The notes beneath the pieces were generated by a model that did no database searches, was not told the DNA's origin, and saw only the letters and a list, made by a program, of their open reading frames with translations. From assembly GCA_017549445.1 (NCBI GenBank), contig JAFYUU010000019.1:1114-65113 (forward strand): DNA of 64,000 nucleotides. The letters are read 5' to 3'. The translations under genes were made by a program, and so were the position numbers. Shown here piece by piece: positions 12,848 through 63,169 of the stretch. Within the stretch, counting starts at the first letter, position 1. The number at the start of each line of letters is the position of its first letter. Origin of the DNA: Alphaproteobacteria bacterium. GTDB taxonomy: Bacteria; Pseudomonadota; Alphaproteobacteria; Rs-D84.

Positions 12848-12853
12848 AAATAA

Positions 12854-12981: not shown

Positions 12982-13212
12982 ATATAGTCAGGGTATAACG
13001 GCACAATTTGCACCATTAACGGAATAACGATGCAAAATCGCACCGTGCGAAATAAGGCTTACGACAGCCCCGAATCCAACTCCCATCGGATTCAATGTGA
13101 ATTATAGCAGATATCGATATAGAATGTCAACAAAATCTATAACATCTTGTTGTTTTTATTCCTTTTATTTGCTATATCATTTTTTAAATAGCAATTAATT
13201 ATAGGACCGACC

Positions 13213-14328
13213 ATGACATTCGTAAAAGACATCGAATTAAATTTGCTGGAAAACAATGCTGATTTACTGAACGGTAAACCATATGCAGAAGCATTAAAAA
13301 ATACAATTCTTCAGAACACACAAAGTAATGAATCTATGGTTGTTGGTTTGCTGGGCGAATGGGGAAGCGGGAAATCTACAATTATAAAAACCGCTGAAGA
13401 AATGATTAAAAAATCTAACAAAAATATTAAGTTTATTAAATACGATGCGTGGAAGTATAAAAAAGACGGTTTTCGTAGAACTTTTTTACTACAAATTCAA
13501 CAATCTCTAGGTCTAAACTCAAATAATTTAATTGATAAGCTGTATTCTAATGAATCACGAGACACTTCCATCAAACACAAAATCAGTTATGCTCGCGTTG
13601 GTTGGTTGGTTTTATTTCTAAGCGCATTATCATTCGTTATTTATTACCTTGCAGGAATAAATATTTTTTCTGCACTTGTCGCTTCATTTATTACGACTAC
13701 ACCTATAATCCCATTAGTAAACGCAAGCTTTAACTGTCTGGACGCATTCAAAACAAGCAAACAAACGCCATTATTGTTTTCTGCGGAGCAATTTGAAGAA
13801 TTTTTCGATGAAATGATAACAAAAGAAACAACTAAGAACCCAAAAATCGTTATTACAATTGATAACATTGATCGATGCGATGCAGAAACCGCTTATTCGC
13901 TACTAAGCGACATTAAAACATTTTTAATTAACAACCCCAAAGTTGTTTTTGTTATTCCTGTGGATGATAACGCCCTTTACCAACACCTGAATAAAGTTTT
14001 TAATTATCAACGTAAACACGCTGGGGAATTTTTGAGAAAAATATTTAATGTTGAAATTAAAATTAAACACTTCGAGGAAATAGAATTGTTTGATTTTGCT
14101 AGCAATTTAAACAAAAAATATAAATTAGGCCTATCTCCTGATGCAATCAGCATAATTTCTAGCGAGTATGCCTCGAACCCTCGTCGCATAATACAATTTT
14201 GCAACAATCTAGAATGTGAAATTTCCGTATTGCTATCAAACGGACTTTTGCCAGCAGAGATCGACAGTCTAAAAAAACATGATATGCAAATTATTGATTA
14301 TAAGGGAAGAATGGCCAGATTACTATAA
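13213..14328 (+). CDS. KAP-family P-loop NTPase, N-terminal part (reading frame broken at an A7 tract)
   Basis: Walker A GEWGSGKST. Two TM helices (GWLVLFLSALSFVIYYLAG / IFSALVASFITTTPIIPLV) are inserted before the Walker B IVITIDNIDRCD, which is the KAP hallmark. Confidence 0.8.
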   Translation: MTFVKDIELNLLENNADLLNGKPYAEALKNTILQNTQSNESMVVGLLGEWGSGKSTIIKTAEEMIKKSNKNIKFIKYDAWKYKKDGFRRTFLLQIQQSLGLNSNNLIDKLYSNESRDTSIKHKISYARVGWLVLFLSALSFVIYYLAGINIFSALVASFITTTPIIPLVNASFNCLDAFKTSKQTPLLFSAEQFEEFFDEMITKETTKNPKIVITIDNIDRCDAETAYSLLSDIKTFLINNPKVVFVIPVDDNALYQHLNKVFNYQRKHAGEFLRKIFNVEIKIKHFEEIELFDFASNLNKKYKLGLSPDAISIISSEYASNPRRIIQFCNNLECEISVLLSNGLLPAEIDSLKKHDMQIIDYKGRMARLL

Positions 14329-16153
14329 CTGTATTTCAAAAGATTATAGATTACTAAATACATATGAACCGAAAAAAATTGAAGAAACATATCCAAACGT
14401 AGAGAATAAAGCAGAACGACAAGGCTTAGACAATTTTTTGCAACGCACTAGTGTATTCGCGTATATAGACGATGAGCGACAACTGGAAAAAATCGTCTCA
14501 AACAATTCGGTCTTTAATTCTATTCCTCTCGAGATTAGGCACGCCGTCCTACATTACGATGAATCTCAAATAAAAAATTACATATCTTTAGATGAAAACA
14601 ACTCAACAATTTTATTGAACTTTATTATTGAACGCCTAAGAGTGGAAGCTCTGAGAAAAACGTGGAATACAGGTTTCCTAACACTATTTAAAACTATTCT
14701 GTACATAAATAACATATCACATATATCAACAACGTCCAACTCTGGGATACAGTTGGAACTCAGGGGAAAAATCCATAATATAATTGACGGATTATTTAAA
14801 CAGCCACAACATATCCTGGATAATTTTATTAAATATTTAAACGATCTATCAGATCAAAAAAAGGACTATTTGATTCGCGATATGATAAACAACTATTTCA
14901 CGCCAGAAATTCTCCACACAACACCTCCCAGTAAAATTGCTATGGATGCGTATAAGACAACCATAACAGGCATAAAAAACACAAGCTTTTTCTCATCATA
15001 TAAGAAATTGTTCAACTCTTGGTATACCAATTCAAAACTATTATTAAAGGATCTAAATATAGAAAATCTAGATGACTTTATTTCTCAAGAATCTCTTGAA
15101 AAGCTTATTGAAGAAATTTCTTTTAGCAATCTAGAAAGACTTCACGATTTTATATATGCAGTTCAAAACATGTCGCATATTCCCGAACAAACTTATGAAG
15201 TTTTTTTCAAAAAACTCTATTCAATAACGCCACAGTACAATGTTCCAAATCAACAAGCGGTTATAGAAAGTTTTAAAATAGCTGTAACTATTTTAAAAAC
15301 AATAAAAAGAGACGATTTGATAATTACTTCATTAGACTCGTATATTACAAATACTACAAAGGACGTCCGAGCATACTCCTACTCTAGCGTACCCCTATTA
15401 TGCATATCTAATAATACGTCTAAAGAAGAAGACAAACGTACCGTATTAGAGTTCCTATCCATAGCATATAAACACACATCAAAGATCGATCTTATCGTTA
15501 AACAACTAAAGGCATTTGTGGCAAAATATACAGACGATAAAGATCTCGTCCTTAATGCTTTGATGCATGCAAATATAAATAATGATTTATCTCCGCTAAT
15601 AGACATTATATTTGGTGGTGAAGCTTATTCAGATGCTTACATATACTGGATTAAGAAACTAACCTTATTAACAGAAGGAAACAAACCGTGTGTGGATGAC
15701 GAAGTTTTGACAAAAGAAATCAAACATATTTTATCATCAATTTTATACATACAAGATACAGACACAGTAGAATCTTTGAATAACCTGTTGGAATTTTTAG
15801 TAGAAAAACGAGGACTCACTTCATCTGCAGCAATTGTTAGCAAGGTTGAAAATGCAGGAAGCAATTTGATTATAAAGTTATCAAACGCTTTAAAAATACT
15901 GGTTTTAGATAAAATTTGCGAGAATATGACCTCCTATGAGCACAATAATGACATTTTAAAATTAATTGCTGTACACGGAAGTAAAACGCAAATTGCATCA
16001 CTTATGCAAGTCATTTTAAAAAAGATTGTTGATGAACGAGATGAAGCAATAGAGATATATAATCAAATTCCTGAAAAATTTATAACAGCACAACACAAAA
16101 AGAAAATTAGGCCATACTTGGAAGAAGATAATGACTCACAAGTAGAAAAGTAA
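14279..16153 (+). CDS. C-terminal part of the KAP-family NTPase (+1 frame relative to 13213..14328)
   Basis: 624 aa. It begins ...KLLIIREEWPDYYN, which continues the KAP core. It overlaps the upstream ORF by 50 nt. Removing one A from 14271-14277 fuses the two into about 980 aa. Confidence 0.65.
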   Translation: MICKLLIIREEWPDYYNCISKDYRLLNTYEPKKIEETYPNVENKAERQGLDNFLQRTSVFAYIDDERQLEKIVSNNSVFNSIPLEIRHAVLHYDESQIKNYISLDENNSTILLNFIIERLRVEALRKTWNTGFLTLFKTILYINNISHISTTSNSGIQLELRGKIHNIIDGLFKQPQHILDNFIKYLNDLSDQKKDYLIRDMINNYFTPEILHTTPPSKIAMDAYKTTITGIKNTSFFSSYKKLFNSWYTNSKLLLKDLNIENLDDFISQESLEKLIEEISFSNLERLHDFIYAVQNMSHIPEQTYEVFFKKLYSITPQYNVPNQQAVIESFKIAVTILKTIKRDDLIITSLDSYITNTTKDVRAYSYSSVPLLCISNNTSKEEDKRTVLEFLSIAYKHTSKIDLIVKQLKAFVAKYTDDKDLVLNALMHANINNDLSPLIDIIFGGEAYSDAYIYWIKKLTLLTEGNKPCVDDEVLTKEIKHILSSILYIQDTDTVESLNNLLEFLVEKRGLTSSAAIVSKVENAGSNLIIKLSNALKILVLDKICENMTSYEHNNDILKLIAVHGSKTQIASLMQVILKKIVDERDEAIEIYNQIPEKFITAQHKKKIRPYLEEDNDSQVEK

Positions 16154-16317: not shown

Positions 16318-16394
16318 GCACCCATGGCCTAACTGGATATGGCGCGTCCCTCCGAAGGACGAGGTTACAGGTTCGAATCCTGTTGGGTGCGCCA
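16318..16394 (+). tRNA. tRNA-Arg(CCG), intact island-borne copy
   Basis: GCACCCA TG GCCT..TGGC G CGTCC CTCCGAA GGACG AGGTT ACAGG TTCGAAT CCTGT TGGGTGC G CCA. Total 77 nt. The acceptor stem matches the split tRNA, and the D, anticodon and T stems carry compensatory changes. Confidence 0.9.
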
Positions 16395-23769: not shown

Positions 23770-23798
23770 TTGCAATTTCCAGTGCAAAAGATTATAAT
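23770..23798 (+). promoter_or_regulatory. sigma70 promoter of ssrA (TTGCAA-N17-TATAAT)
   Basis: -35 at 23770-23775 and -10 at 23793-23798, with a 17-nt spacer. Confidence 0.6.
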
Positions 23799-23804
23799 CC
23801 AATG

Positions 23805-24146
23805 GTCGCAGTTGCGATGATGATTCTGAAGCCGTTGTGCAATAGTCATTTTGGACTGGGGGGCGGTACCCCACAGCTCCACCATCTGATGCGATGAAGA
23901 GTCGTATCTGATTATGGGGCTGACATAGTTTCGACAGGTGATGAAAGACAAATTGGTTGAATCCGACATGGCGTCGTTAAAAGCCGACTAAAAACTGAAT
24001 GGCGATAGAATCGCTGCGAACGACAATGTTCGCCTTGCAATGGCTGCCTAAGATGGCGTTGAGTGTGGTTGGCGATTGTTGACCAAACTCGTTTGAGCAA
24101 TTGCGGGGTCGGTCGGGGACCTGGCACCAGAAATCCCGACATTTTG
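23805..24146 (+). ncRNA. ssrA: circularly permuted two-piece tmRNA gene (acceptor piece, ~31-nt intervening segment, coding piece)
   Basis: The acceptor piece ends ...TGGGGGGCGGTACCCCACAGCTCCACCA at 23884. The coding piece starts GGGGCTGACATAGTTTCGACAGG at 23916. GGGGCTG pairs with CAGCTCC and includes a G3-U wobble. The tag ORF GCG AAC GAC AAT GTT CGC CTT GCA ATG GCT GCC TAA (24016..24051) encodes ANDNVRLAMAA. A 9-bp helix forms between 23807-23815 and 24097-24105. A terminator hairpin lies at 24112-24140. The outer ends are approximate. Confidence 0.8.
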
Positions 24147-49582: not shown

Positions 49583-50395
49583 TTATTCACCAATACTTGT
49601 GTCCTTGTTAGACATCCAATTGTGGAATTTATCCACCAATGCCAATAGTTCGGACGGGACATAGGAACGGGCCATGTCTTGTAATTGTTGTGGCACGCCA
49701 TAGTATGCACCTGCGACCGCACCGGCAATGGCACCGATTGTGTCAGAATCACCGCCGATTGATATTGCATTACGCAGGGTGTCTTCGAATGATGTGGACT
49801 CGAAAAAACACTGCAAGGCCTGGGGAACAGTGCCTTGGCACGAAACATCCCAGTCATAGGTGTCACGTAATTCGTCCACCGATGGACAAGACGGGTAATA
49901 ATTTTCGTGGATATAATTGGTAATCGCTTCTTTGCTGTGGCCAGTGCGTGCCAAGAACACGGCAACAGATGTGGCCTCGGCACCTTTGATACCTTCGATA
50001 TGGTTGTGGGTGACAGATGTCACCATATAAGACAAATGTTTCACCTGATTCAGGTCTTGACCAACCCAACCCACCGCAGATACACGCATCGCTGATCCGT
50101 TGCCCCAGCTGTTGTATGGTTCGGGGACAGCAGATTCCAGCCAATGTCTGAACCCAAAGCCATAGCCCATATCAGGAAACCTGCGACCAATCAAACGCAT
50201 AGAACGAATTGTTGCATCCTGGACATCTGATTTACGGATTGTTGCATGCAACAAGGCATTTGCAACCGCAATCGTCATACAACTATCGTCTGTAATATGA
50301 TTGCGATCGGTCATAAGTTGAAAATTTTTAGTCCGAATATTAGAAAATTCATATACAGACCCTACAATATCACCAATAATTGCACCCCATAACAT
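49583..50395 (-). CDS. ADP-ribosylglycohydrolase family protein
   Basis: 270 aa. MLWGAIIGDIVGSVYEF...TDDSCMTIAVA...GGDSDTIGAIAGAVAGAYYG. Confidence 0.8.
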   Translation of the reverse strand: MLWGAIIGDIVGSVYEFSNIRTKNFQLMTDRNHITDDSCMTIAVANALLHATIRKSDVQDATIRSMRLIGRRFPDMGYGFGFRHWLESAVPEPYNSWGNGSAMRVSAVGWVGQDLNQVKHLSYMVTSVTHNHIEGIKGAEATSVAVFLARTGHSKEAITNYIHENYYPSCPSVDELRDTYDWDVSCQGTVPQALQCFFESTSFEDTLRNAISIGGDSDTIGAIAGAVAGAYYGVPQQLQDMARSYVPSELLALVDKFHNWMSNKDTSIGE

Positions 50396-50427
50396 ATCTG
50401 ATTCCCCCTGTTGATGTTTCCGATGTT

Positions 50428-50847
50428 TTATTCTGCGTATTCTGAAAAACTGTGCCGTCTGGTCGTGATATTACGGCGAACATTGCGGCGATTTTGATAC
50501 AAAATCAGTTTATCCAGTTCCGCCTGGGCGGTTTTCTTAATCCAAGAATTGCTGGCATCTGGGTGGATAAAACGTAATTGCTGGGTCCGAAGTTCCATAA
50601 ATTCTGCCTGACTGGAACGCTTGTTCAGGTTGGCACGGGACATTAAACGTTCTACACGCAGGTCAAATTCATCACGACTGATTTCATTATAGACCAGGGC
50701 ATCGCACATACCATTTAACTGGCTACGCAGGTCTGGACGATTACGAAAAAATGAATCGTAGCAATCATATGCCGTATAGTTGTGTCGGGTTGACGCAATA
50801 CTGCGAACCGCAGATGTTAAAACCGAAGATGTATTTAATGTGTTCAT
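50428..50847 (-). CDS. hypothetical protein
   Basis: 139 aa. No domain recognised. Confidence 0.4.
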   Translation of the reverse strand: MNTLNTSSVLTSAVRSIASTRHNYTAYDCYDSFFRNRPDLRSQLNGMCDALVYNEISRDEFDLRVERLMSRANLNKRSSQAEFMELRTQQLRFIHPDASNSWIKKTAQAELDKLILYQNRRNVRRNITTRRHSFSEYAE

Positions 50848-51059
50848 GTTTATCCTTTTGGTTGTCTATGAACACATTATGAAACCGTCACACGTCAAAA
50901 TTGGTCTGGTATAAAATATTTGACAGAGTTCTCTTTTTAGTTTAGCATCTTGTCACATTGTTTTTTGCCCTGTAAAGGAACGGGGCGATTTTACACATAT
51001 ATTTTCACACTTTTTATAATCAGAACAATAATAAACAATAAAAAACAAAGGATTTAGAC

Positions 51060-51344
51060 ATGGCATATGCCGTATTGATAAACGCAATAAATCAACCAGA
51101 TTGGTTAAGTAAATTGGGAATTTTAGCATTCTGGCAACCCGGATTCGAATCCACCCACCGACCGTCTGGGCCGATTGAATACCGCAGACCCGCATCAGGT
51201 GGGAATGGTGGTGGTAATAAACCAAACAAACCCAAAAAGGATAATCCAAACGACAAACTGGAAAAAATCTGGAATCAGGTAAAACAGTTGTCTAAACAGC
51301 AAATAGAAGAACTGAAAAACAGAATCAACATCAGATTCTATTAA
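51060..51344 (+). CDS. hypothetical small protein
   Basis: 94 aa with a low-complexity GGNGGGNKPNKPKKDNPN region. Confidence 0.35.
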   Translation: MAYAVLINAINQPDWLSKLGILAFWQPGFESTHRPSGPIEYRRPASGGNGGGNKPNKPKKDNPNDKLEKIWNQVKQLSKQQIEELKNRINIRFY

Positions 51345-51349
51345 ACAAA

Positions 51350-51374
51350 AACGCCCCAGACGGGGTGTTTTATT
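51350..51374. terminator. bidirectional terminator
   Basis: ACGCCCC-AGAC-GGGGTGT flanked by A and T runs. Confidence 0.55.
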
Positions 51375-52302
51375 TGCGATATGCATCCAGTACGGTTTGG
51401 TTACGTTGGTATTCTTGTTTATATTTTTCGCCAAATATCCTATACCGCAGGTAGGACCAAAACATCCGCCAGCGAGATGGTTTTTTGTAAAATAAGGTTT
51501 CTTTGGCATAGTGCCAAAAATAAGAATCAAACCAACAACTTTTATTCCAGGGCTTGTCCATACCATCATAATGAATCAATTTGCAACTATAAACCAGATA
51601 TTTGTCTGTTTCGACATCAATGGAAAGTTGCCAAATCTCACGTCCCCAATCCAGTTCCAGCGGTTTATAATTATTTTTATCAAACATAATGTTAAAAACA
51701 TCTTGGTCGGCATAAAACAGTAAATCGCTTTTCTCTTGGGTCAGTTTTATCAAACGATTTGTCATATCTTGGACCCGCCATTTGTCCAGGTCAAGCAACA
51801 TAATCCCCGAACAAAAATAAATGTGTTCCGAAGACAGGTTCAATGCCTTATATCTTTCCTGAATATATGGTTTTTTGGCGACCGTTTCTTCGCCCACAGC
51901 ACCCACAGAATATCCGTCTAAATCCGTAGAGAATAAATCGTAAATGTCATATTTTATGATTGTGTCCACGTCCAGATAAATGCATTTGCCTAAGTTTGGA
52001 CACAATTCCGGCAGAAAATATCTGAGATAATTAGATACAGTAAAATGACCGTGCACAGGAAATTTTTTGACAACACCACCCGCATCAACTGGTATAAACG
52101 TCAGGGTAAAGTTATTAAACACCCCCAATGATTTACGCATCTTTTTCTTGGTTGATGAACGTATCTGATTTTCCAGGATGTAAAAGTCTATGTGATGGGA
52201 CGTATTTGCCAGAACACTGAACATAGAAACCGTAAGTGGTTTGGCATAGTTCTCGTCTGAGACATAACATACTGGGATATGAATTGTTTTCTGTAGCGAC
52301 AT
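51370..52302 (-). CDS. glycosyltransferase family 8 (LPS/LOS glycosyltransferase-like)
   Basis: IHIPVCYVSDENYAKPLTVSMFSVLANT and the DxD-type YLDVDTII motif are present. The track start (52335) is TTG. ATG 52302 has an AAGGGA SD 5 nt upstream, so the start remains uncertain. Confidence 0.75.
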   Translation of the reverse strand: MSLQKTIHIPVCYVSDENYAKPLTVSMFSVLANTSHHIDFYILENQIRSSTKKKMRKSLGVFNNFTLTFIPVDAGGVVKKFPVHGHFTVSNYLRYFLPELCPNLGKCIYLDVDTIIKYDIYDLFSTDLDGYSVGAVGEETVAKKPYIQERYKALNLSSEHIYFCSGIMLLDLDKWRVQDMTNRLIKLTQEKSDLLFYADQDVFNIMFDKNNYKPLELDWGREIWQLSIDVETDKYLVYSCKLIHYDGMDKPWNKSCWFDSYFWHYAKETLFYKKPSRWRMFWSYLRYRIFGEKYKQEYQRNQTVLDAYRK

Positions 52303-52391
52303 TATCATCCCTTGATTTTCTGCTCTTTCTAGCAAATTATCGTCTATTATTCAAGGTATATTTATAGTATTACGTTTTCAAGTTATAAAAA

Positions 52392-52401: not shown

Positions 52402-52464
52402 TATGATTTTATCACGACCAACCACATACAAATTCCAATTTTACAGGGAATTTACAGGGATTTT

Positions 52465-53748
52465 TTATTTCGTATGTTGTGGTTCGGCAAATCGACGCAT
52501 TGCATCATATGCCAAGCCAAGGCCCACACTGGCCATTTTGTTTGCTGATGACAATTCTGCATTTGGGAAATAAGACTGCATAACACGACTTACATATGGA
52601 ATTTCGGTCGAACCACCCGTTAAAATGACTAATTCTATGTCTGTATTTTTTATGCCTGCTTGGGCGATGCACTCTTGAACAGACTTTTCAATTTTGGCCA
52701 TATCGGACTTGATAGAATCTTCAAAAACGGAACGATTAGTTTTGACCATCGGAGCATCTGCTAAAAAGTCTAAAACTATTTCATAGTCCTGCTGTGAAGA
52801 TAGTGCCATTTTAGCATTTTCAACATAATCTAGGTTTTTATGCCCCAGACGATTTTCTATTATTTCATATAGACGTTTTGTTTTTGCCGGTTCCAGCCCC
52901 CAAACGGTATAACCGCGAACCATATTCAGTGTTTTATAATTATAAACTTCGTTTACAGACGACCATGTGGAAAGACTAATATACGGACTGGTTGGGATTG
53001 TGATGTTTTTATCATGCGATTTATATTCTGTCCCCAATCCAAAACATGGCATAAATGATTTCATTGATAGTGCCTTGTCAAAATCATTTCCGCCAATACG
53101 AACACCCGTATTAGCCAATACATCTTCGGTTCTATCCAACTTGAACTTGCGTTCTGGCGATAGTCTGATAATGGTAAAGTCAGATGTTCCGCCACCAATA
53201 TCAACAACAAAAGCAAGCTTTTCCGATGTTAAATTCTGTTCGTGTGCAAAGGCCGCCGCAATTGGCTCATACTGAAATGCGACATGTTTAAATCCGGCTG
53301 CAAGTGCGATTTTTTCCAATTCTGCCTGGGCTTGGGCATCACCAGCCGGGTCATTATCCCGGAAATGCACAGGACGCCCCATAACAACATATTCAACCTT
53401 GGTGCCTGCTGCCTTGTCAATTTTCTGTTTCAGGTGTTTCACAAAATATTCAATAATTGTATCAAAGCGGGTCATTTTTCCATTTACGACCGTCCCGCCA
53501 CGCATTGTTTGTGACCCCAAAATACGCTTCATGCTGCGCATAAAACGCCCAGAACCATCGCCATTTGTATATTTGTTTTGTGCATCACGGCCATAGTGAA
53601 CACAGTTGGTTTTCTCCGCAAAAAAAAGTGCCGTTGGGATCGTGTCTTTGCCGCCTTCTACATCCACCATACGCGGTGTCGCCCCATCAGAAATCGCAGC
53701 AGCAGAATTAGTTGTCCCAAAATCAATCCCTGCAACATATTTAACCAT
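52465..53748 (-). CDS. Hsp70-family actin-like ATPase (YegD-like, NBD only)
   Basis: 427 aa. Contains AGIDFGTTNSAAA, VVDIGGGTSDFTII, RIGGNDFD and LTGGSTEIP. There is no substrate-binding domain. Confidence 0.8.
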   Translation of the reverse strand: MVKYVAGIDFGTTNSAAAISDGATPRMVDVEGGKDTIPTALFFAEKTNCVHYGRDAQNKYTNGDGSGRFMRSMKRILGSQTMRGGTVVNGKMTRFDTIIEYFVKHLKQKIDKAAGTKVEYVVMGRPVHFRDNDPAGDAQAQAELEKIALAAGFKHVAFQYEPIAAAFAHEQNLTSEKLAFVVDIGGGTSDFTIIRLSPERKFKLDRTEDVLANTGVRIGGNDFDKALSMKSFMPCFGLGTEYKSHDKNITIPTSPYISLSTWSSVNEVYNYKTLNMVRGYTVWGLEPAKTKRLYEIIENRLGHKNLDYVENAKMALSSQQDYEIVLDFLADAPMVKTNRSVFEDSIKSDMAKIEKSVQECIAQAGIKNTDIELVILTGGSTEIPYVSRVMQSYFPNAELSSANKMASVGLGLAYDAMRRFAEPQHTK

Positions 53749-53815
53749 AAAAGCACCTCTTTTTACTTGAAAAGTTTATAACAAACTGCTTAAATGTCAA
53801 GCATAAGGTTATACT

Positions 53816-54427
53816 ATGTTTATTGTAATCGAGGGTGGTGATGCCGCTGGCAAAACCACATTGATAAACGGACTTAAACAAACAATCCAACAAAATGGAC
53901 TGGGGGGATTGTCGCCACAAAACACTCATTTTCTCAAATCACCAACCGCCCCATTTGCCCCCGTATGGAAGGATTTAATCAAAACATCCAGCCCACTAAC
54001 TCGATTTTATTTATTCCGTTCTATTGCACAAAATGATGTTGATGTTGCAAAAAAACTTTTAGAAAACGGACAGCACGTTATTCTTGAACGGTATTTTTTA
54101 TCCAGCGAAGCGTTTAATTGGGCATTAGATGAGAAAAACAATGTTACAGATCCAAATATACGTTCCGAAAACCACGTTAATTATTCTGGATTGCTAAAGC
54201 CCGACTTAGGCTTCTTTTTGGATACATCTGACAAAAAACGCGAACAAAGATTACAACAAAAAGAAAAACGATCGGATTGGGAAAATCGCGATTTTCAGAC
54301 CATATTCAACCAAAAGCTTAGAGAACTGGCCCAGTGCGACAATTGGATTTTTGTAGATACAGATAAAATGAATATCACAGAGGTATTACAATTTGTATCA
54401 GCCAGGATTATACAATATCAACGCTGA
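53816..54427 (+). CDS. thymidylate-kinase-family nucleotide kinase (divergent)
   Basis: 203 aa. P-loop FIVIEGGDAAGKTT. ILERYFLSSEAF replaces the DRY/H..S..AYQ motif. A LID-like KKREQRLQQKEKR is present. Confidence 0.7.
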   Translation: MFIVIEGGDAAGKTTLINGLKQTIQQNGLGGLSPQNTHFLKSPTAPFAPVWKDLIKTSSPLTRFYLFRSIAQNDVDVAKKLLENGQHVILERYFLSSEAFNWALDEKNNVTDPNIRSENHVNYSGLLKPDLGFFLDTSDKKREQRLQQKEKRSDWENRDFQTIFNQKLRELAQCDNWIFVDTDKMNITEVLQFVSARIIQYQR

Positions 54428-55374
54428 CGCCAATTATTGAAAAACAATGGATCATCACGATTAATTGTATATTCAACCCCGCATTTTTTTAACACATCTA
54501 ATCTATTACTATCAATACGTTTGACGGGCGTTAACAGCACATTCGATTCAGGGCATAGATCAAACCTGGTATGCCCCGAAAATAGTTTTAATATCTTTTG
54601 CCTTGTGTCATTTGACCATAAATATGTTCCATGACCAATATTATCCAGTTGCAATTTTGATAAATTAACAAAATATTCATCATAAAGTTCGTCTTGCGTA
54701 GTTCCTGTAATTATTTCACCCGCATGCAATCCGACAGTCGTTTTTAAGCCAAAGGCCTTACTTGCTTCTATTATTTCAGACAAAACACACAAATTGGATT
54801 CTAGTATGTTTTTATCAGGGTATTCATATCCAGAAATATCAAAACCAACGCAACGCGATTTAAATGGTTCTTGTTGTAATAATTTGCAAATATCAGACAA
54901 CAATTTATACGAATAATTTTTTAATTCTCCAGATTGCGTACGAATAAAGGTTATACAAATTTTACCTTTTGCGGCTTTATGCAACTTTTCTACGTCTTCA
55001 AAACCGTGAATCATCCCTATGTAACGCTTATATGTATTGTCTATGGTTATGTCAGGACCTGCAATAATTGTGTATTCTGATATTCCCAAATGCACCAAAT
55101 TAAGAGCTAACTCACGTGTTGCCAGACGGTATGTTTGATATATTTCATTTGTATTTTTTGGTTTTGTAACAGATTGCACCAGCGAATACATTTCGTTAAA
55201 CTTTTGTTGATTTAATTTATAATCGTTGCCAAACATACTAACAAAAGTATAGGACAAACCATCAGGCGACAGAATAGAATACTTATCTAAAAACGCCTGA
55301 TTTGACTCTTGTAATTTTCTATACACGTATGTAGGCGATAAAGAACCTGTAAAATGTAAATGTTTGTCTATCAT
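54418..55374 (-). CDS. adenosine/AMP-deaminase-fold metal-dependent hydrolase
   Basis: 318 aa. HLHFTGSL, IGHGTYL, HAGE and INRDDPLFF follow the order of ADA-family metal and catalytic motifs. Confidence 0.65.
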   Translation of the reverse strand: MIDKHLHFTGSLSPTYVYRKLQESNQAFLDKYSILSPDGLSYTFVSMFGNDYKLNQQKFNEMYSLVQSVTKPKNTNEIYQTYRLATRELALNLVHLGISEYTIIAGPDITIDNTYKRYIGMIHGFEDVEKLHKAAKGKICITFIRTQSGELKNYSYKLLSDICKLLQQEPFKSRCVGFDISGYEYPDKNILESNLCVLSEIIEASKAFGLKTTVGLHAGEIITGTTQDELYDEYFVNLSKLQLDNIGHGTYLWSNDTRQKILKLFSGHTRFDLCPESNVLLTPVKRIDSNRLDVLKKCGVEYTINRDDPLFFNNWRQR

Positions 55375-56561
55375 TTAACTTTACCAATCCAAGTACACAG
55401 ATAGTCCATATGAACCAATCTTTGTGTGTTTACCATATTTTGTTCTTGCGGGAATTCATGCTGATAGTCCTTGGGACAATATGGATCCTTGCACAAAAAT
55501 GACTTATCGCCTGTTTGCACTGCATTAAACAGATAAGATCTGGCCGCACATCCACCACCACACACATCTACTTTTTCACACCCCGCACATCCACGTAACA
55601 TTTCTGGATTTGCATTTCGTTGCCTAAACACCTTAAATTCATCTGAATTTATAATGTCTGATAATTCGTGTGTTAACAGGTCTTGTGAAGATTTATAATC
55701 ATGCATATAAACACACGGCGAAACAAAAATTTTCCCGTCTGGCGTAATAGAGTGAATCCTGAAACTTGATATTCCACATGGACAACGTTTTGAATTTTTT
55801 TGTCCTGTCACTGTTCTCAACACACTTTCACCATTTTCTACATTATCACAGTGTTGCATCAAATACTGAAACCCATCATAAAACTGTTTAATAGACATAA
55901 CGTATTTCATTTGTAGCGAATTTAAGGGTTTCATCGTATTGATACGAATAAAAGCATCGTATTTCTTGCATAATTCTATTAGCGCTGACAAGTGTCTTTC
56001 TGTAAAATTCCAATTCATGCCAGCCATAATGACACTGTGCGCTTTTCCAGTTTGCTTGCAAATATCTAAACATTGAATGGCATCATCATATAAGTCATCG
56101 CCACGATTGGCATTATGTTCTTCTTTGAATGGCGAATCCAAACTTATATCAAAATCATTTATTTTTTCATAAATATCAGGGCGATATTTATACAGATACA
56201 ATAATGTATCACCACTGGTGGTAATTCCCGCCGATAACCCATACGAATCCAAACGTTCTATTATATATGGCAACAGAGAATCTTTAACATTTGGGCCGTT
56301 CGTAAAGATTGGCTCGTTTCCACCAAGATTTATTGTTTCAACATTGTTCTTGGCCAATTGTTCTACTATTCTATCTACAATTTCAGGCGTCATATTAGCA
56401 CCAAGACGGCGGGCAGACATAGAATAACAATGCTTGCACTTATGCGGACAATAATTTCCCAGTGTCCAACCAACATTTTTTATTACCGATGGGGTCTCTG
56501 GGGCGTTACCAAATTCGGTAACAGGACCACGTACCTTGTAATGTTCAGTTGAGTTATACAT
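55371..56561 (-). CDS. radical SAM protein with C-terminal SPASM-type auxiliary cluster domain
   Basis: 396 aa. CPHKCKHC is a CxxxCxxC motif. GGNEP is present. The C-terminus reads CPCG...SPC...CAGCEKVDVCGGGCAARS. Confidence 0.8.
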   Translation of the reverse strand: MYNSTEHYKVRGPVTEFGNAPETPSVIKNVGWTLGNYCPHKCKHCYSMSARRLGANMTPEIVDRIVEQLAKNNVETINLGGNEPIFTNGPNVKDSLLPYIIERLDSYGLSAGITTSGDTLLYLYKYRPDIYEKINDFDISLDSPFKEEHNANRGDDLYDDAIQCLDICKQTGKAHSVIMAGMNWNFTERHLSALIELCKKYDAFIRINTMKPLNSLQMKYVMSIKQFYDGFQYLMQHCDNVENGESVLRTVTGQKNSKRCPCGISSFRIHSITPDGKIFVSPCVYMHDYKSSQDLLTHELSDIINSDEFKVFRQRNANPEMLRGCAGCEKVDVCGGGCAARSYLFNAVQTGDKSFLCKDPYCPKDYQHEFPQEQNMVNTQRLVHMDYLCTWIGKVK

Positions 56562-56562
56562 A

Positions 56563-58146
56563 TCATTTCACCTTTATAAATGGGTTTACTGCCGCCTTGT
56601 ATTGTAATCGTGCTTTGCGATATAATTCGTCTGTTTTTGACTCTTGTTTATAAAAGAATCCTCTGTTGTTTTCTATTGATTTTTCTACAAAACTTGCAAC
56701 CGTTGTGGCACTTGCATTACTGTCAACCAAATCTAATATTTTGCACATAATATCTAAATCCAGTTGTCGTATTTTTAAGTATTCAACATAAAAATCTGAC
56801 ATTTCTGATTTTGTAAGTGCCTTTGGCGATGTAAGCGGGTCTATTGCCTTGTCATAAAAAGCCATATGCACTGTGTGCCAACGCTTCAGGGCATCATACG
56901 CTATTTTGGCCCTATCGTCTAATATTCTATAATTGTAATTCCCCAACACTGGATTTTCACTGGTCACAATATTATTTCTGGAAACTTTCTGTTGAAACGC
57001 CGTACCAGTTGCTGCAAACATTTCTGTAAAAATACCCTTGCTTATAATCCAATCATATTTCTGCATATATTCATAGTTCTCTTGCAACTCAACCAGTGTG
57101 GTATAAGGATCAAATAATATCTGGCCTGCTTGGACATAAAAGTCATGTTTCTTAAACAAATCTAATGCCATGCAATTTTGTTCAACCGATGCACCCTTGG
57201 CCATTCGTTTCAACGCAGTTGTGGAAAAATTTTCTATTCCGCATGAGAATGAGAAAAAACCAGCACGTTTTAATTCTGCGAGCACTTCATCTGTTACCCT
57301 GTCGGCACGTATTGAGCCACGTAAATCAAAGACAAGACCATATTCTTGCATTTTGTTTGCAAAATCGCGACACCATTGTGCTTCCCTGTCACCATCAACA
57401 AAGGAATCGTCAATAACTTTGATATGTTGCACACCTAAACTTTTCAAATACCGCATTTCAGATATAATATTATCTATGCTACGCCCACGCCATTTTGGGG
57501 ACTTTGACAGTATAAAAAAAGAATTTATACTACAAAAAGAGCAATAACCCGTACAACCACGTGCCGTCAACAGGTGTATGGGTGTACGTTTATCTATTGC
57601 GATTTTTACCGTATCACGAACTGGGATTGGCAGGTCGTCCAGCGGGCTTAATAACTTTACAATGGGATTATGCGTATTTTTGGTATTTTCTTTATAACTT
57701 AGATTCTTAATACCTGAAACAGGGGTTTTATCTTGTAACGCTTGTGCTAAATCACAAATCGCCTGCTCGCCCTCGCCACGAATTACGAAATCAAATCCGC
57801 TGTCTAAAAATAAGTCTGGACTAAAAGTGGGGCCAAAACCACCTGCAACAAAGGTAATGTTTTTTTGTTGCTTTACAGCATCCAATGTCTTTAACGCCTG
57901 ATCTATATTGGATTGATACGCAGAAACACCAATGAACAAAGGATCTTTGTCTTGTAAAATCTTATTTGCCAATTCGTCTGACGTCCAGCCATTTAGCCAA
58001 GCATCTAAAATTTTTACCTCAAATCCATTTTTTTGTAAAACTGCAGACAAATACCCCAGCCCCAGATTTTCTTCTGCAGTTCTATGACTGATGGGTGCTG
58101 GGGTTGCTAAGATAATAAAATTATTTTTGTTCTGCGTATTTTGCAA
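56563..58146 (-). CDS. B12-binding-domain radical SAM protein (class B)
   Basis: 527 aa. The N-terminal Rossmann-like region reads FIILATPAP...LGLGYLSAVL...FIGVSA...VAGG. RGCTGYCSFCS is a CxxxCxxC motif. Confidence 0.8.
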   Translation of the reverse strand: MQNTQNKNNFIILATPAPISHRTAEENLGLGYLSAVLQKNGFEVKILDAWLNGWTSDELANKILQDKDPLFIGVSAYQSNIDQALKTLDAVKQQKNITFVAGGFGPTFSPDLFLDSGFDFVIRGEGEQAICDLAQALQDKTPVSGIKNLSYKENTKNTHNPIVKLLSPLDDLPIPVRDTVKIAIDKRTPIHLLTARGCTGYCSFCSINSFFILSKSPKWRGRSIDNIISEMRYLKSLGVQHIKVIDDSFVDGDREAQWCRDFANKMQEYGLVFDLRGSIRADRVTDEVLAELKRAGFFSFSCGIENFSTTALKRMAKGASVEQNCMALDLFKKHDFYVQAGQILFDPYTTLVELQENYEYMQKYDWIISKGIFTEMFAATGTAFQQKVSRNNIVTSENPVLGNYNYRILDDRAKIAYDALKRWHTVHMAFYDKAIDPLTSPKALTKSEMSDFYVEYLKIRQLDLDIMCKILDLVDSNASATTVASFVEKSIENNRGFFYKQESKTDELYRKARLQYKAAVNPFIKVK

Positions 58147-58528
58147 TTTCGGCCTTTAAGCTGGGGTCTGCGGACATATCTGCAAATTCTGCAGGATCTA
58201 TCCACTTATATTCTGTATGTTCGCTTGACAGTTTTACTTCTCCCCCCAGATATTTTGCCAACAGCGTAATACCAACAGTCTGTCTTTCTTTTGCTGGCGT
58301 CATAAATGACCACAATGACCACGGTCTAAATTCGATTTCTACATCAAGCCCCGTTTCTTCAAAAACTTCGCGTTTAATACCATCTGTTGTTTTTTCGCCA
58401 TACTCTATTTTCCCGCCTGGGATATCCCATAATTCGGCATAAACATCTTCTTCGCAACTGCGCTTCAGAACTAAAATCTTATCGTCTTTATGTATAATTG
58501 CCTTCAACGCAACCTTAAATTCCGCCAT
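58121..58528 (-). CDS. Nudix hydrolase
   Basis: 135 aa with the exact Nudix box GGKIEYGEKTTDGIKREVFEETGL. An AGGGAG RBS is present. Confidence 0.85.
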   Translation of the reverse strand: MAEFKVALKAIIHKDDKILVLKRSCEEDVYAELWDIPGGKIEYGEKTTDGIKREVFEETGLDVEIEFRPWSLWSFMTPAKERQTVGITLLAKYLGGEVKLSSEHTEYKWIDPAEFADMSADPSLKAEIAKYAEQK

Positions 58529-58550
58529 TTGTCACTCCCTGTATGCGAGC

Positions 58551-58578
58551 ATAGTACCGCATAAATTCATAAAATCAA
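58551..58578 (-). promoter_or_regulatory. sigma70-like promoter of the Nudix-rSAM operon (TTGATT-N16-TACTAT)
   Basis: -35 is the reverse complement of 58573-58578 and -10 is the reverse complement of 58551-58556. The 14-mer TTGATTTTATGAAT is identical to the one in the rubrerythrin promoter. Confidence 0.45.
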
Positions 58579-58689
58579 GTTTTATTGACTGACAATTTGT
58601 ATTCCATTACCACTCAACTCATTTGAAAAAAATTCCAAAATTTGCTACTAATAGTATGGGCGGTGGAATTATGGCGAAGTGTCCGGCTA

Positions 58690-58723
58690 AAAACAAACCC
58701 TCGACTAATATTGTCGAGGGTTT
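58690..58723 (-). terminator. terminator of tRNA-Ser(GGA)
   Basis: AAACCCTCGAC-TAATATT-GTCGAGGGTTT with GTTTTT on the minus strand. Confidence 0.7.
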
Positions 58724-58730
58724 AATTATT

Positions 58731-58740
58731 TCTGGCGGAG
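58731..58740. repeat. TCTGGCGGAG at the tRNA-Ser(GGA) 3' end, partner of 52392-52401
   Basis: Exact 10-bp direct repeat. Confidence 0.35.
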
Positions 58741-58824
58741 ACGAAGGGATTCGAACCCTTGATACCCCTTGCGAGTATACTACATTTCCAATGTAGCGCA
58801 CTAGACCAACTATGCGACGTCTCC
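58733..58824 (-). tRNA. tRNA-Ser(GGA), CCA encoded
   Basis: Reverse complement: GGAGACG TC GCATAGTTGGTCTAGTGCG CTACA TTGGAAA TGTAG, a long variable arm, AAGGG TTCGAAT CCCTT CGTCTCC G CCA. Total 92 nt. Confidence 0.9.
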
Positions 58825-61003: not shown

Positions 61004-61030
61004 CAACCCGCATTGTGCGGGTTGTTTTTT
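61004..61030 (+). terminator. rho-independent terminator
   Basis: CAACCCGCA-TTG-TGCGGGTTG followed by TTTTTT. Confidence 0.7.
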
Positions 61031-61078
61031 ATAAATTTTATAATTGAAATACACGATAATACTGCTATTATTTCCCAC

Positions 61079-62260
61079 ATGAGAAAAAGTTTATTTGCAC
61101 TGATTTTAAGTATGATTGTCTGTGTGGCAAATGCCGATACAGAATTCAAGACCAAGGCCAAATCTGCACTGCTGATTGACTATGATTCCGGGGCAGAGAT
61201 TTTCGCCAAAGATGCCGATGTTTTAATGCCACCTTCGTCTATGATTAAACTGATGACGTTGGCGGTGCTGTTTGATGAATTAAAGGCCGGAACCATCACA
61301 ATGGATACACGATTTACAGTCAGCGAAAATGCCGACTATGAAAATCCGCTGTGGTATCCAGCCAGTAAAATTTGTCTGGTCAAAGGTCAGACAATTACCG
61401 TGCGTGATTTGATTTTGGGGCTGATTGTGTTGTCGGGGGGCGATGCGTCCGTGGTGATTGCAGAACATCTGGCCGGGACAGAAAGTGCCTTCACCGCCAA
61501 AATGACCGAAAAAGCACGCAGTATTGGTATGCCGTTATCTTCGTTCGGTAATGCAAGTGGTCTGCCGAATCCAAATAATTTGATGACCAGTCGGGAACTG
61601 GCCACGTTGGCGGTGCATTTAATTGGGGACTATCCAGAACTGTATCCAATGTTTGCAACAAAACGGTTCGAATTTGACGAGCATAAAACAGAATGGTGCC
61701 AAGAATGGGGACGGACACACACGGTGAACTATAACAAATTGCTGTTTAATATGCCGGGGGCAGATGGTCTGAAAACGGGCCACACGTCTGATGGCGGATA
61801 CGGTATGGTTGCCAGTGCCAAGGTTGGCGGACGGCGGTTGGTCGGTGTGATAAACGGATTCAACGGCAAAGGACACGATGCGTTGGCAAACGAAATGAAA
61901 AAGTTATTAAACCATGGTTTTGCAACAACGATGAACAAGACGTTTTTCCAACCTGGGGATACGGTTGCCCAAATCCCCGTATGGTATGGCAAGCAAGACA
62001 CCGTTGATGCAACCGTTGTCAAGCCGTTTGCAGTGACACTGGGCAAGAACAAAGGACTGGCGGGGGTGCGGGTGCTGGCACGGTTTAACGAGCCACTGAA
62101 CGCCCCGATAAATGCAGGCGATGAAATCGGGCAACTGATTGCGGAACAAGACGGGGTTGTGGTGGCACAAATGCCACTGGTCGCCAAAGACAGGGTTCGC
62201 AAAATTCAATTCTTGGGACGTGTGATTAAAAACATTATGGTAATGTGTGGGGGACAATAA
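61079..62260 (+). CDS. D-alanyl-D-alanine carboxypeptidase (PBP5/6-like, S11)
   Basis: Start at MRKSLFALILSMIVCVANA. SxxK motif (PPSSMIKLMT), LSGGDAS and KTGHT are present. Confidence 0.85.
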   Translation: MRKSLFALILSMIVCVANADTEFKTKAKSALLIDYDSGAEIFAKDADVLMPPSSMIKLMTLAVLFDELKAGTITMDTRFTVSENADYENPLWYPASKICLVKGQTITVRDLILGLIVLSGGDASVVIAEHLAGTESAFTAKMTEKARSIGMPLSSFGNASGLPNPNNLMTSRELATLAVHLIGDYPELYPMFATKRFEFDEHKTEWCQEWGRTHTVNYNKLLFNMPGADGLKTGHTSDGGYGMVASAKVGGRRLVGVINGFNGKGHDALANEMKKLLNHGFATTMNKTFFQPGDTVAQIPVWYGKQDTVDATVVKPFAVTLGKNKGLAGVRVLARFNEPLNAPINAGDEIGQLIAEQDGVVVAQMPLVAKDRVRKIQFLGRVIKNIMVMCGGQ

Positions 62261-62263
62261 AAT

Positions 62264-63169
62264 ATGGCACCACGTAAAAAGAAAACTGTGGAATTTAACT
62301 TTCCCCATCCGATGGACAATGATGTCTTGGTCGGACACGGCGATACATTGCAATCCTTTATGGATGCGTGGAACAATCGGGAAACACACCCTATTCATCC
62401 GGTGTGGATGCTGACTGGGCCACGTGGCATCGGCAAGGCAACACTGGCATACAAAATCGCAAAGATGGTGTATGGTAATGTTGGGGACTTTTTCATCATA
62501 GATTTAGACAGAAATCTGGACAAAGATGGCAAATTGAAACCAGACGGAAAATCAATTTCTGTATTCACGGTGCGGGCGATGATTGAACGTATGCAGATGT
62601 CGTCTATGTCGGGACAATGGCGGGTGATTCTGATTGATGCCGTGGATGAGTTGAATACCGCTTCGTCAAATGCAATTCTGAAATTATTGGAAGAACCGCC
62701 GGCAAAAACACTGTTCCTGTTGGTGGTGCACCAGTTGTCAAACGTCCTGCCAACGGTGCGATCACGGGCCAGAGTTGAAAAAATGAGACCTTTGAGCATT
62801 TCGCAACTGCGTGAACTGTGTATAAAATTCTTGCCGGAAGAAGATGTCAGCACCGAGACACTGAAACTGGCCAACGGCAGTTTTGGAAAAATCGCAAATC
62901 TGAAAATGTCGGGTGGAGATGAAATTTATGATGCGTTATTAGAACTGCTGAATAATAAATACGCAGACCCTGATGACGTGATGAATATGGCAAAGAAAAT
63001 TGCGGTGGCACCTGAACTGTATCCGATTGTACTGGATGCGGTGGCTTATTTTGGGTTGGCGGATTTGTATCCACAGATTACACACGCAATCGCAAATATG
63101 GTGCGACTGAATCTGGAACCAGAAACCGCAATCTTTAAGATGATTATGGAAATTAAAAAATGTTTATAG
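62264..63169 (+). CDS. holB: DNA polymerase III subunit delta prime
   Basis: 301 aa. Contains HPVWMLTGPRGIGKATLAYKIAK and NAILKLLEEPP, plus an SRxxxxxxR sensor region. Confidence 0.8.
   Translation: MAPRKKKTVEFNFPHPMDNDVLVGHGDTLQSFMDAWNNRETHPIHPVWMLTGPRGIGKATLAYKIAKMVYGNVGDFFIIDLDRNLDKDGKLKPDGKSISVFTVRAMIERMQMSSMSGQWRVILIDAVDELNTASSNAILKLLEEPPAKTLFLLVVHQLSNVLPTVRSRARVEKMRPLSISQLRELCIKFLPEEDVSTETLKLANGSFGKIANLKMSGGDEIYDALLELLNNKYADPDDVMNMAKKIAVAPELYPIVLDAVAYFGLADLYPQITHAIANMVRLNLEPETAIFKMIMEIKKCL

Follow-up and report, generated by a model that had tools for sequence, protein, structure and literature searches.

We report a six-gene cassette at positions 52443-58583 of a 64,000-nucleotide stretch of an alphaproteobacterial contig (GenBank JAFYUU010000019.1), hereafter called the window. 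The cassette encodes a cobalamin-binding radical S-adenosylmethionine (SAM) enzyme (B12-rSAM), a second radical SAM enzyme with a SPASM domain (SPASM-rSAM), a Nudix hydrolase, a protein of the adenosine deaminase (ADA) fold, a kinase of the thymidylate kinase (Tmk) family and a YegD-like Hsp70/actin-fold ATPase. It is a horizontally acquired, recently transferred, low-GC and discrete unit, and it belongs to a family of widespread, uncharacterised gene clusters with two radical enzymes and a pyrophosphatase at their core. We put the probability that the cassette is a mobile member of a family making a remodelled nucleotide or nucleoside at roughly 0.5. A nucleotide-modifying pathway had been proposed by an earlier, sequence-only reading of this DNA; the conserved mobile unit with its nucleotide enzymes speaks for that proposal, while the role given to the deaminase and the membership of the core had to be revised.

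We compared 80 genome loci, together with others, which were dereplicated to 44 groups at 85% B12-rSAM identity. All six-frame open reading frames (ORFs) within ~7-8 kb were clustered. Pfam and NCBIfam served to annotate the cluster representatives, and a second round of counting used hidden Markov models (HMMs), whose counts are given here. The 44 groups span Alphaproteobacteria, Bacillota, Actinomycetota, Bacteroidota, a candidate-phylum bacterium of the Daviesbacteria and an archaeon of the Woesearchaeota. Members are frequent in gut Bacillota, and cultured Streptomyces, Nocardia, Bradyrhizobium, Agrobacterium and Phaeobacter carry them as well. The SPASM-rSAM gene adjoins the B12-rSAM gene in 41 of the 44 groups. 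A small (~125 aa) pyrophosphatase-like (PPase-like) protein (PF00719) was found in 33/44 groups and a Nudix protein in 12/44, one or the other being present in 40/44 and in 27 of the 29 groups with full context. P-loop kinase-like proteins accompany 36/44 groups, HprK-like only in 28, Tmk-like only in 7 and both in 1. Homologues of these genes are therefore neighbours in other genomes too, even where the phylum differs or the gene order has been rearranged. The operon envisaged by the sequence-only reading holds in that the radical SAM pair plus a pyrophosphatase is near-universal, but its Nudix, ADA-fold and Tmk-like members are Enterousia-type fillers of roles which other lineages assign to the small PPase-like protein, to a phosphorylase resembling 5'-methylthioadenosine phosphorylase (MTAP-like) or an MtaD/DadD-like deaminase, and to an HprK-like P-loop protein. 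The window version, with Nudix, ADA-fold, Tmk-like and Hsp70-like genes, is thus an Enterousia-type variant. A Rickettsiales metagenome-assembled genome (MAG) carries the PPase-like protein in place of the Nudix, and a Daviesbacteria genome encodes the same six functions with order and orientation changed. Curated models (NCBIfam), PADLOC and a searchable full-text library were consulted without finding a curated family, defence model or paper that describes the cluster, and database names are generic ("radical SAM protein"), in line with the earlier statement that the gene set matches no pathway that could be named.

Other genes recur around the pair. A HelD gene is present in 20/44 groups (NCBIfam 428 bits vs a cut-off of 419), and its linkage was seen in three architectures, in Bacilli, Clostridia and Bacteroidota; a ribosome-protection-like ABC-F gene is present in 9/44 (371.5 bits vs a cut-off of 380), with ABC-F proteins of the antibiotic-resistance (ARE) type linked in at least 4 lineages. 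LysR regulators were found in 13/44 groups, nucleoside deoxyribosyltransferase-like (NDT-like) proteins in 16/44 and Hsp70-like proteins in 6/44, and further neighbours across lineages include guanylate-kinase-like and APH-type kinases, a histidine phosphatase, a HAD hydrolase, and NDT-like and thymidylate synthase-like (ThyA-like) proteins. The version on an Enterococcus conjugative plasmid has a major facilitator superfamily (MFS) transporter and a large AMP-binding enzyme, and that on a Streptomyces clavuligerus plasmid sits among secondary-metabolism genes. In addition, a block of ThyA-like, ThiD and DAO genes is confined to actinomycetes (5/44 groups) and is joined by a TenA gene in a Nocardia locus. 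In the Nocardia and Streptomyces loci (L088 9873-15989; also L034, L039, L040 and L073-L076) the radical SAM pair is followed by PPase-, HprK-, MTAP-, thymidylate-synthase-, NDT-, ThiD-, glycine-oxidase- and TenA-like genes, a set that resembles bacimethrin-type (thiamin antivitamin) pyrimidine chemistry. A thiamin-antivitamin reading of the family was set aside, since the ThyA-like, NDT-like, ThiD, ThiO and TenA genes are confined to those 5/44 groups and absent from the window. Clostridia loci (cluster c53; L089 10700-11359) encode a conserved ~220-aa protein with no Pfam or NCBIfam match and an E-x-E-x-K-like start (ERELKYLIKK), which may be a CYTH-type triphosphatase and hence another phosphate-handling component.

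The mobility of the cassette is evident from comparison with the nearest genomes, gut MAGs from the unplaced alphaproteobacterial genus Candidatus Enterousia. By blastn, window 52443-58583 is 92-96% identical to six Candidatus Enterousia contigs (L008, L009, L010, L013, L017 and L018), whereas the flanking housekeeping DNA is only ~71% identical in L008 and L013, which carry the cassette at the same site beside tRNA-Ser, and is unalignable in L009 and L010. Therefore we are dealing with a discrete ~6.1 kb cassette that recently moved between diverged species. Its GC content is 37.9% vs 43.4% in the remainder of the window, and the GC content at third codon positions of its genes is 27-35% vs 44-50% in the neighbouring miaB-like, dac, holB and tatD. 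Horizontal acquisition, suspected by the sequence-only reading, is borne out by both lines of evidence; the compositional anomaly it noted is real, albeit milder than its counts on single lines of sequence implied. The cassette genes are a co-inherited unit under purifying selection, with dN/dS of 0.07-0.11 for all six (vs a 73%-identical version). The block spans from just upstream of a promoter-like element to just past the Hsp70-like stop codon. The five genes delimited earlier are real, but the coordinates given for the system ended one gene early: the block continues to ~52443 and takes in the Hsp70-like gene, which had been left out. In L009 five of the genes share ~97% aa identity with those of the window and the Hsp70-like gene only 76%, and therefore a recombination breakpoint lies between Tmk and Hsp70-like. 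Directly after the Hsp70-like stop codon, where L008 identity ends, window 52440-52460 reads TCCCTGTAAA(T) TCCCTGTAAA(A), a tandem duplication that may be a scar or site of recombination. In L003 the cassette adjoins an integrase and AbiEii. A scan of 2.9 million viral contigs returned one weak, IS-flanked and frameshifted match to the family, and a phage-borne origin was rejected on this ground.

Pfam assigned the B12-rSAM a B12-binding domain (2e-20, residues 26-133) and a Radical_SAM domain (3e-15, residues 194-355), i.e. an N-terminal cobalamin-binding Rossmann domain followed by a radical SAM core with the CX3CX2C signature (motif CTGYCSFC). Full-length homologues remain ~45% identical in very distant lineages. 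Searched against solved structures, the family profile placed OxsB on top (E 8.9e-33, the next being 1.6e-18), with 117 bits against 70 for MgmA, 55 for TokK and 51 for CysS. The AF2 model (pLDDT 87.8) also had OxsB as its top Foldseek match (TMq 0.73), with TsrM, MgmA, CysS and TokK at or below 0.63. By profile and by predicted fold OxsB thus clearly appears as the nearest solved relative. The SPASM-rSAM (Pfam Radical_SAM 7e-13, SPASM 5e-6) is conserved even more strongly, at 54-58% identity across phyla (Alphaproteobacteria, Actinomycetota and a candidate phyla radiation bacterium), and has 13 invariant Cys, including 260, 262, 283, 325, 328, 334, 338, 362 and 389. Its family comprises 109 entries at E<=1e-30 among 1.84 billion 50%-identity representatives. 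It matches only generic SPASM/twitch relatives (PqqE, CteB, BlsE, SuiB, MoaA and anSME), which are uninformative on substrate, and its NCBIfam matches (MftC, NirJ, AhbC/D, CbpB and StsB) are weak and all far below cut-offs. Some members of this family have large N- or C-terminal extensions (P0361, 578 aa; P0365, 709 aa; P0461, 684 aa), possibly fusions with partner domains that might reveal functional partners.

None of the six cassette proteins scored above the cut-off of an NCBIfam model. The Nudix hydrolase (Pfam NUDIX 2.6e-17) is closest to the NudG and MutT models, all below cut-off. The kinase (Pfam Thymidylate_kin 1.7e-18) narrowly misses TIGR00041 with 75.9 bits vs a cut-off of 83.25; it has the P-loop and carries ERY in place of the usual DRY, and its gene lies convergent in the same position in all Enterousia and Rickettsiales-type loci. 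No second Tmk homologue was found within the window. Elsewhere in the window (61013-63169), holB comes directly after a D-Ala-D-Ala carboxypeptidase gene, without the tmk that in Alphaproteobacteria often separates the two. The Hsp70-like protein (HSP70 5e-31; PRK11678 258 bits vs a cut-off of 331) is encoded directly beside the B12-rSAM in the Daviesbacteria genome, a Magnetococcales MAG and a Woesearchaeota MAG. We do not call it core, because its homologues number in the thousands and close copies occur without the radical SAM pair; it is a probable accessory or anchor gene. A literature search on YegD found no functional data. In related genomes, Hsp70-like homologues are divergent from other Nudix-containing operons (L096/L097 4477-9266 and L094 4933-9287), one with Peptidase_S66 (MccF-like), NUDIX, ASCH, APH-type kinase and Peptidase_S51 genes, the other with NUDIX and three unknown proteins. 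These operons sit among Cas1/2, type I restriction-modification (R-M), HipA, NOV_C and ABC-F genes, which suggests a recurrent hotspot of a YegD-like ATPase with a Nudix operon.

The ADA-fold protein (Pfam A_deaminase 7e-14; TIGR01430 50 bits vs a cut-off of 216) keeps HxH, HAGE, GHG and the Asp of NRDDP, i.e. the zinc ligands and the catalytic Glu/His, throughout the seven cassette groups. Directly after HxH, where the E. coli Add reference sequence has an Asp, all cassette homologues have Thr; in canonical ADA this Asp contacts the 5'-OH. The best matches among solved structures are Plasmodium ADAs, enzymes that also take 5'-methylthioadenosine (MTA). Across the family, 33/44 groups encode exactly one of a PNP_UDP_1 phosphorylase (19), an ADA-fold protein (7) and an Amidohydro_1 protein (7), and two of these never occur together. 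The phosphorylase is closest to MTA phosphorylase and the amidohydrolase to the group of 5'-deoxyadenosine, MTA/S-adenosylhomocysteine (SAH) and aminofutalosine deaminases, all scores being below cut-offs. Phosphorolysis and deamination yield different products, hence the simplest reading of such mutually exclusive enzyme types is a shared task on a 5'-substituted adenosine. This pattern suggests that the ADA-fold enzyme handles such a compound, either an inhibitory radical SAM by-product (5'-deoxyadenosine, SAH or MTA) or an adenosyl intermediate. Adenosylated intermediates are processed by HpnG in hopanoid synthesis and by MqnB/MTAN in the futalosine pathway. The sequence-only reading had let the deaminase install the defining modification; the three-way, never overlapping substitution points to a 5'-substituted adenosine instead.

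From the pattern as a whole we infer a substrate, a chemistry, roles for the accessory genes and a purpose. A phosphorylated nucleoside is favoured as the substrate because the neighbours across lineages are nucleotide enzymes. The OxsB-like B12-rSAM and the SPASM-rSAM would act in succession on it, most plausibly on an adenine (deoxy)nucleotide, and would remodel the nucleotide sugar or add carbon, in parallel to OxsB with OxsA and AlsB with AlsA. The coupled MutT-like Nudix would set or remove the phosphate state, or protect the producer by triphosphate hydrolysis, while the Tmk-like kinase may interconvert the NMP and NDP of substrate or product. The ADA-fold enzyme would remove a 5'-substituted adenosine, such as a by-product of the 5'-deoxyadenosine, MTA or SAH type or an adenosylated intermediate, a role that in other lineages would fall to the MTAP-like or MtaD/DadD-like enzymes; the YegD-like ATPase would be accessory. 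The product is probably toxic to gene expression and could be either an antiviral nucleotide or an antimetabolite that harms competitors. The linkage to HelD and ABC-F suggests such toxicity together with cluster-encoded immunity. HelD is a motor that recycles RNA polymerase, and its relatives confer rifamycin resistance. The Enterococcus MFS exporter, the secondary-metabolism context in S. clavuligerus and the common LysR regulators argue for a secreted antimetabolite.

Among known systems, the cluster would thus belong with the radical SAM pathways to nucleoside and nucleotide analogues. OxsB contracts the sugar ring of dAMP, dADP or dATP and needs the phosphohydrolase OxsA nearby (PMC13331322), and AlsB together with a second radical SAM enzyme, AlsA, is necessary and sufficient to convert dAMP to the oxetane nucleoside albucidin (PMC13331322; PMC7074753). 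With the oxetanocin A pathway (OxsB and OxsA on a Bacillus megaterium plasmid) the cassette shares the class-1 cobalamin-binding Rossmann domain, the radical SAM core and the C-terminal helical bundle, the pairing of a radical SAM enzyme with a nucleotide phosphohydrolase, translationally coupled in the cassette, and residence on mobile DNA. It differs in that OxsA is an HD-domain protein whereas the cassette has a Nudix (in other lineages the small PPase-like protein), and in adding a second (SPASM) radical SAM enzyme, a predicted kinase and a predicted deaminase. The sequence-only reading had excluded oxetanocin; the pathway is indeed distinct, although OxsB is the closest solved relative and the oxetane-nucleoside logic the closest known. 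The albucidin system of Streptomyces albus subsp. chlorinus (AlsB/AlbB and AlsA/AlbA) likewise has adjacent genes for a cobalamin-dependent and a second radical SAM enzyme, and its neighbourhood includes a thymidylate kinase gene (PMC7074753). Its gene order differs from that of the cassette, which has no ribonucleotide reductase gene, and AlbA is described as biotin-synthase-like, whereas the cassette enzyme is a full SPASM protein (compared by description only). The alb cluster was not among the 80 nearest loci. By analogy with these two pathways, the present family appears to combine both types of oxetane partner, the second radical SAM enzyme and the pyrophosphohydrolase.

More distant parallels were also considered. 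In systems of prokaryotic viperins (pVip) with nucleotide kinases, a radical SAM enzyme and a Tmk-like kinase occur together on islands of mobile or defence type and the expected product is a modified NTP that blocks polymerases, as would hold for the cassette. Neither cassette radical SAM enzyme is a viperin, however, and the cassette has two of them, with cobalamin, a pyrophosphatase and a deaminase. The PADLOC candidate PDC-M51 pairs both domain types (A, a B12-type radical SAM enzyme; B, a Tmk-like kinase), but the matches are weak and it would be at most a distant relative, PDC-M51 itself being a computational candidate. Membership in PDC-M51 seems doubtful, as other family members, when retested, gave only weak matches (1e-6 to 1e-22; PADLOC has no stated cut-offs). 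The 4'-thiothymidine cluster thmABC of Photorhabdus, in which the NTPase is the self-resistance gene (PMC12691670), follows the same logic of radical SAM enzyme, nucleoside or nucleotide kinase and nucleoside triphosphatase; its radical SAM enzyme is of an unrelated type (no cobalamin, no SPASM pair), and the likeness considered here is one of logic. The futalosine (Mqn) pathway, rightly excluded before, is analogous only in its logic of adenine removal: no MqnA, MqnC, MqnD or MqnE families are present among the cassette Pfam/NCBIfam matches or the recurrent neighbours.

Several observations weigh against a nucleotide-remodelling pathway. No product, substrate or phenotype is assigned to any family member. 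The B12-rSAM shares only ~25% identity with OxsB over 343 residues (E 6e-17) and falls short of orthologue-level similarity, AlsB and OxsB having 44% similarity to each other. The four-domain architecture of OxsB and AlsB (PMC13331322) is incomplete in it, as the ~130-aa N-terminal domain is absent (527 aa vs 744 aa in OxsB) and the alignment begins at query residue 26 vs OxsB residue 136. Its NCBIfam scores to the BchE, PhpK and MCR-methylase models are of similar order, and few B12-rSAM structures exist, so that "closest solved" guides weakly. Judged by sequence, the relationship to OxsB is a lead, not membership. Searches with the SPASM-rSAM by sequence and fold gave no informative relative (TMq <=0.60). 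Furthermore, some members (Bradyrhizobium) carry the radical SAM pair alone, the window itself lacks HelD and ABC-F genes, and a reverse search showed that the thousands of Hsp70-like homologues include 63-75% identical copies without the pair. Finally, all the phosphate- and adenine-handling genes could have helper functions in by-product removal or housekeeping, in which case they would not reveal the true substrate.

The last objection leads to a pathway whose product is not a nucleotide but, for example, a cofactor, lipid or phosphonate that has been methylated or cyclised, and in which the Nudix/PPase, kinase and ADA/MTAP/MtaD functions would only clear and recycle the by-products of SAM (5'-deoxyadenosine, SAH, MTA and inorganic pyrophosphate). 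The mutually exclusive MTAP-like, MtaD/DadD-like and ADA-fold enzymes are exactly the types that dispose of 5'-deoxyadenosine and MTA, some loci contain the pair alone, and both the comparable weak scores of the B12-rSAM to BchE, PhpK, HpnR and MCR-methylase models and the closest weak matches of the SPASM-rSAM (MftC, NirJ and AhbC/D) are consistent with it. We nevertheless consider it unlikely: the accessories are overwhelmingly nucleotide enzymes (Tmk-like, guanylate-kinase-like, NDT-like, ThyA-like and MutT-like Nudix) and not generic salvage, no lipid, tetrapyrrole or phosphonate scaffold genes recur in the neighbourhoods, and OxsB is clearly the nearest solved relative. Peptide maturation, in which the SPASM-rSAM and the B12-rSAM as C-methyltransferase would modify a ribosomally synthesised and post-translationally modified peptide (RiPP), seems highly improbable. 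SPASM enzymes are commonly peptide maturases, RiPP methyltransferases of the B12-rSAM type exist (TIGR03975, 9e-20) and the weak best NCBIfam matches include MftC, CbpB and StsB, yet all matches are far below the family cut-offs. The operon leaves no intergenic room for a precursor gene and, as reported before, none is found at the locus, only spurious small ORFs over the tRNA and terminator. The SPASM-rSAM has no RiPP recognition element (RRE) domain, its radical SAM core beginning at about residue 29 in the predicted model; among the 44 groups there is no recurrent PqqD-like partner, peptidase or conserved small ORF, and the conserved partners are small-molecule nucleotide enzymes.

An anti-phage role would be a special case of the nucleotide-remodelling explanation, set apart by its purpose: infection would induce a chain-terminating or poisonous nucleotide, as viperins do, with the Nudix as a safety valve and the kinase supplying the substrate. 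A mobile low-GC cassette beside a tRNA fits such a role, as do the integrase and AbiEii next to the L003 copy and the Cas1/2, type I R-M and HipA genes around the Hsp70-like anchor gene in related genomes, and HelD could rescue host RNA polymerase stalled by such a chain terminator. PADLOC matched the Tmk-like kinase to VakA (4e-9) and PDC-M51B (8e-17) and the B12-rSAM to PDC-M51A (1e-14), but throughout the family its matches stay weak (1e-6 to 1e-22). The exclusion of pVip by the sequence-only reading was upheld, as the viperin model NF038283 scored 27.2 bits vs a cut-off of 180 and the PADLOC pVip match (7e-11) covers the generic radical SAM core only. No sensor or effector module is evident, and many versions have LysR regulators, an MFS exporter and AMP-binding enzymes or lie on secondary-metabolite-rich Streptomyces plasmids, features more typical of biosynthetic clusters. 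We consider a defence function unlikely. The nucleotide-directed enzymes, together with the NDT-like base-exchange or glycosidase protein of 16/44 groups, would also suit the installation of a modified base in host DNA or RNA. We hold this self-modification to be very unlikely, given that no transglycosylase, polymerase, DNA/RNA-binding transferase or paired restriction component recurs and that the family is essentially absent from viral contigs.

The organisation of the cassette is given in Table 1. The coordinates reported earlier for the Nudix, B12-rSAM, SPASM-rSAM, ADA-fold and Tmk-like genes match the ORF list exactly, all quoted motifs (RGCTGYCSFCS, CPHKCKHC, HLHFTGS/HAGE/NRDDP, IEGGDAAGKTT and the Nudix box) were found in the translations, and profile HMMs gave a significant Pfam assignment for every domain family. 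The tight coupling was also reproduced: the Nudix and B12-rSAM genes overlap by 26 nt, a gap of 1 nt separates the B12-rSAM stop from the SPASM ATG, the SPASM-rSAM and ADA-fold genes share a 4-nt ATGA, and the ADA-fold and convergent Tmk-like genes overlap by 10 nt. The 26-nt overlap rests on a TTG start, and homologues are likewise called at 527 aa; in locus L003 the overlap is 32 nt. The adjoining tRNA-Ser was identified as tRNA-Ser(GGA). The promoter-like element named by the sequence-only reading is present just within the cassette edge at 58583. It matches only 8/12 consensus positions, which is below the scanner threshold, and shuffled sequence yields promoter-like matches at least as frequently as the region does; because of both, we grade it a plausible candidate promoter and not a demonstrated one.

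Table 1. Positions in the window of the cassette, its genes and adjoining elements.
Feature	Position	Strand	Basis
Whole transferred cassette, six genes and upstream promoter-like element	52443..58583	-	blastn block and GC
MutT/NudG-like Nudix hydrolase, 135 aa	58121..58528	-	Pfam NUDIX
Cobalamin-binding radical SAM enzyme (B12-rSAM), 527 aa, TTG start	56563..58146	-	Pfam B12-binding and Radical_SAM
SPASM-domain radical SAM enzyme (SPASM-rSAM), 396 aa	55371..56561	-	Pfam Radical_SAM and SPASM
ADA-fold metallo-deaminase, 318 aa	54418..55374	-	Pfam A_deaminase
Tmk-family P-loop nucleotide kinase, 203 aa, convergent with the ADA-fold gene	53816..54427	+	Pfam Thymidylate_kin
YegD-like Hsp70/actin-fold ATPase without substrate-binding domain, 427 aa	52465..53748	-	Pfam HSP70
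Weak sigma-70-like element TTGATT-N16-TACTAT, followed by AGGGAG and the Nudix ATG; candidate promoter	58549..58576	-	Direct reading
Promoter-like TTGACA-N16-TAAACT in the 67-bp divergent Tmk/Hsp70-like intergenic region	53773..53800	-	10/12 consensus match only
tRNA-Ser(GGA), landmark beside the insertion point, outside the cassette	58733..58824	-	ARAGORN
Terminator of tRNA-Ser(GGA)	58694-58724		Terminator scan

Other parts of the window were noted in passing. Between the cassette and dnaK-dnaJ (49583-52335) lie a GT8 glycosyltransferase gene (37.9% GC), a 139-aa ORF without family and an ADP-ribosylglycohydrolase gene, a region that is likewise variable, because L008 has no alignable counterparts. 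A second low-GC island (10313-16153, 31-39% GC) beside tRNA-Arg (16318-16394) contains genes for a UvrD-like helicase of 844 aa, which has a topoisomerase-type zinc ribbon at its C-terminus, for a KAP-family P-loop NTPase of 371 aa and for a 624-aa protein without Pfam match; it looks like another acquired module, possibly defence-related. A permuted two-piece tmRNA at 23791-24142, with the tag peptide AANDNVRLAMAA, is consistent with alphaproteobacterial origin.

A bolder form of the nucleotide-remodelling explanation, which we regard as rather improbable, is that oxetanocin/albucidin-type chemistry has in this family a third branch, far more widespread than the other two. An adenine nucleotide would be converted to a ring-remodelled analogue that stalls RNA polymerase or the ribosome, the pyrophosphohydrolase would restrain it, HelD and ABC-F would provide immunity, and horizontal gene transfer would have spread the cluster as a weapon against phages or competitors. 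If true, this branch would include bacteria of the human and animal gut as well as candidate-phylum bacteria and DPANN archaea. Oxetanocin, albucidin, ddhCTP and 4'-thiothymidine exemplify the natural nucleoside and nucleotide analogues, which serve as drug leads and antiviral effectors and to which few radical SAM routes are known. The present clusters form a compact family with an unusually conserved enzyme pair, and cultured carriers exist. Moreover, the comparative pattern yields hypotheses on the minimal gene set, an obligatory pyrophosphohydrolase, a 5'-substituted adenosine as the substrate of the deaminase or phosphorylase, and immunity through HelD and ABC-F.

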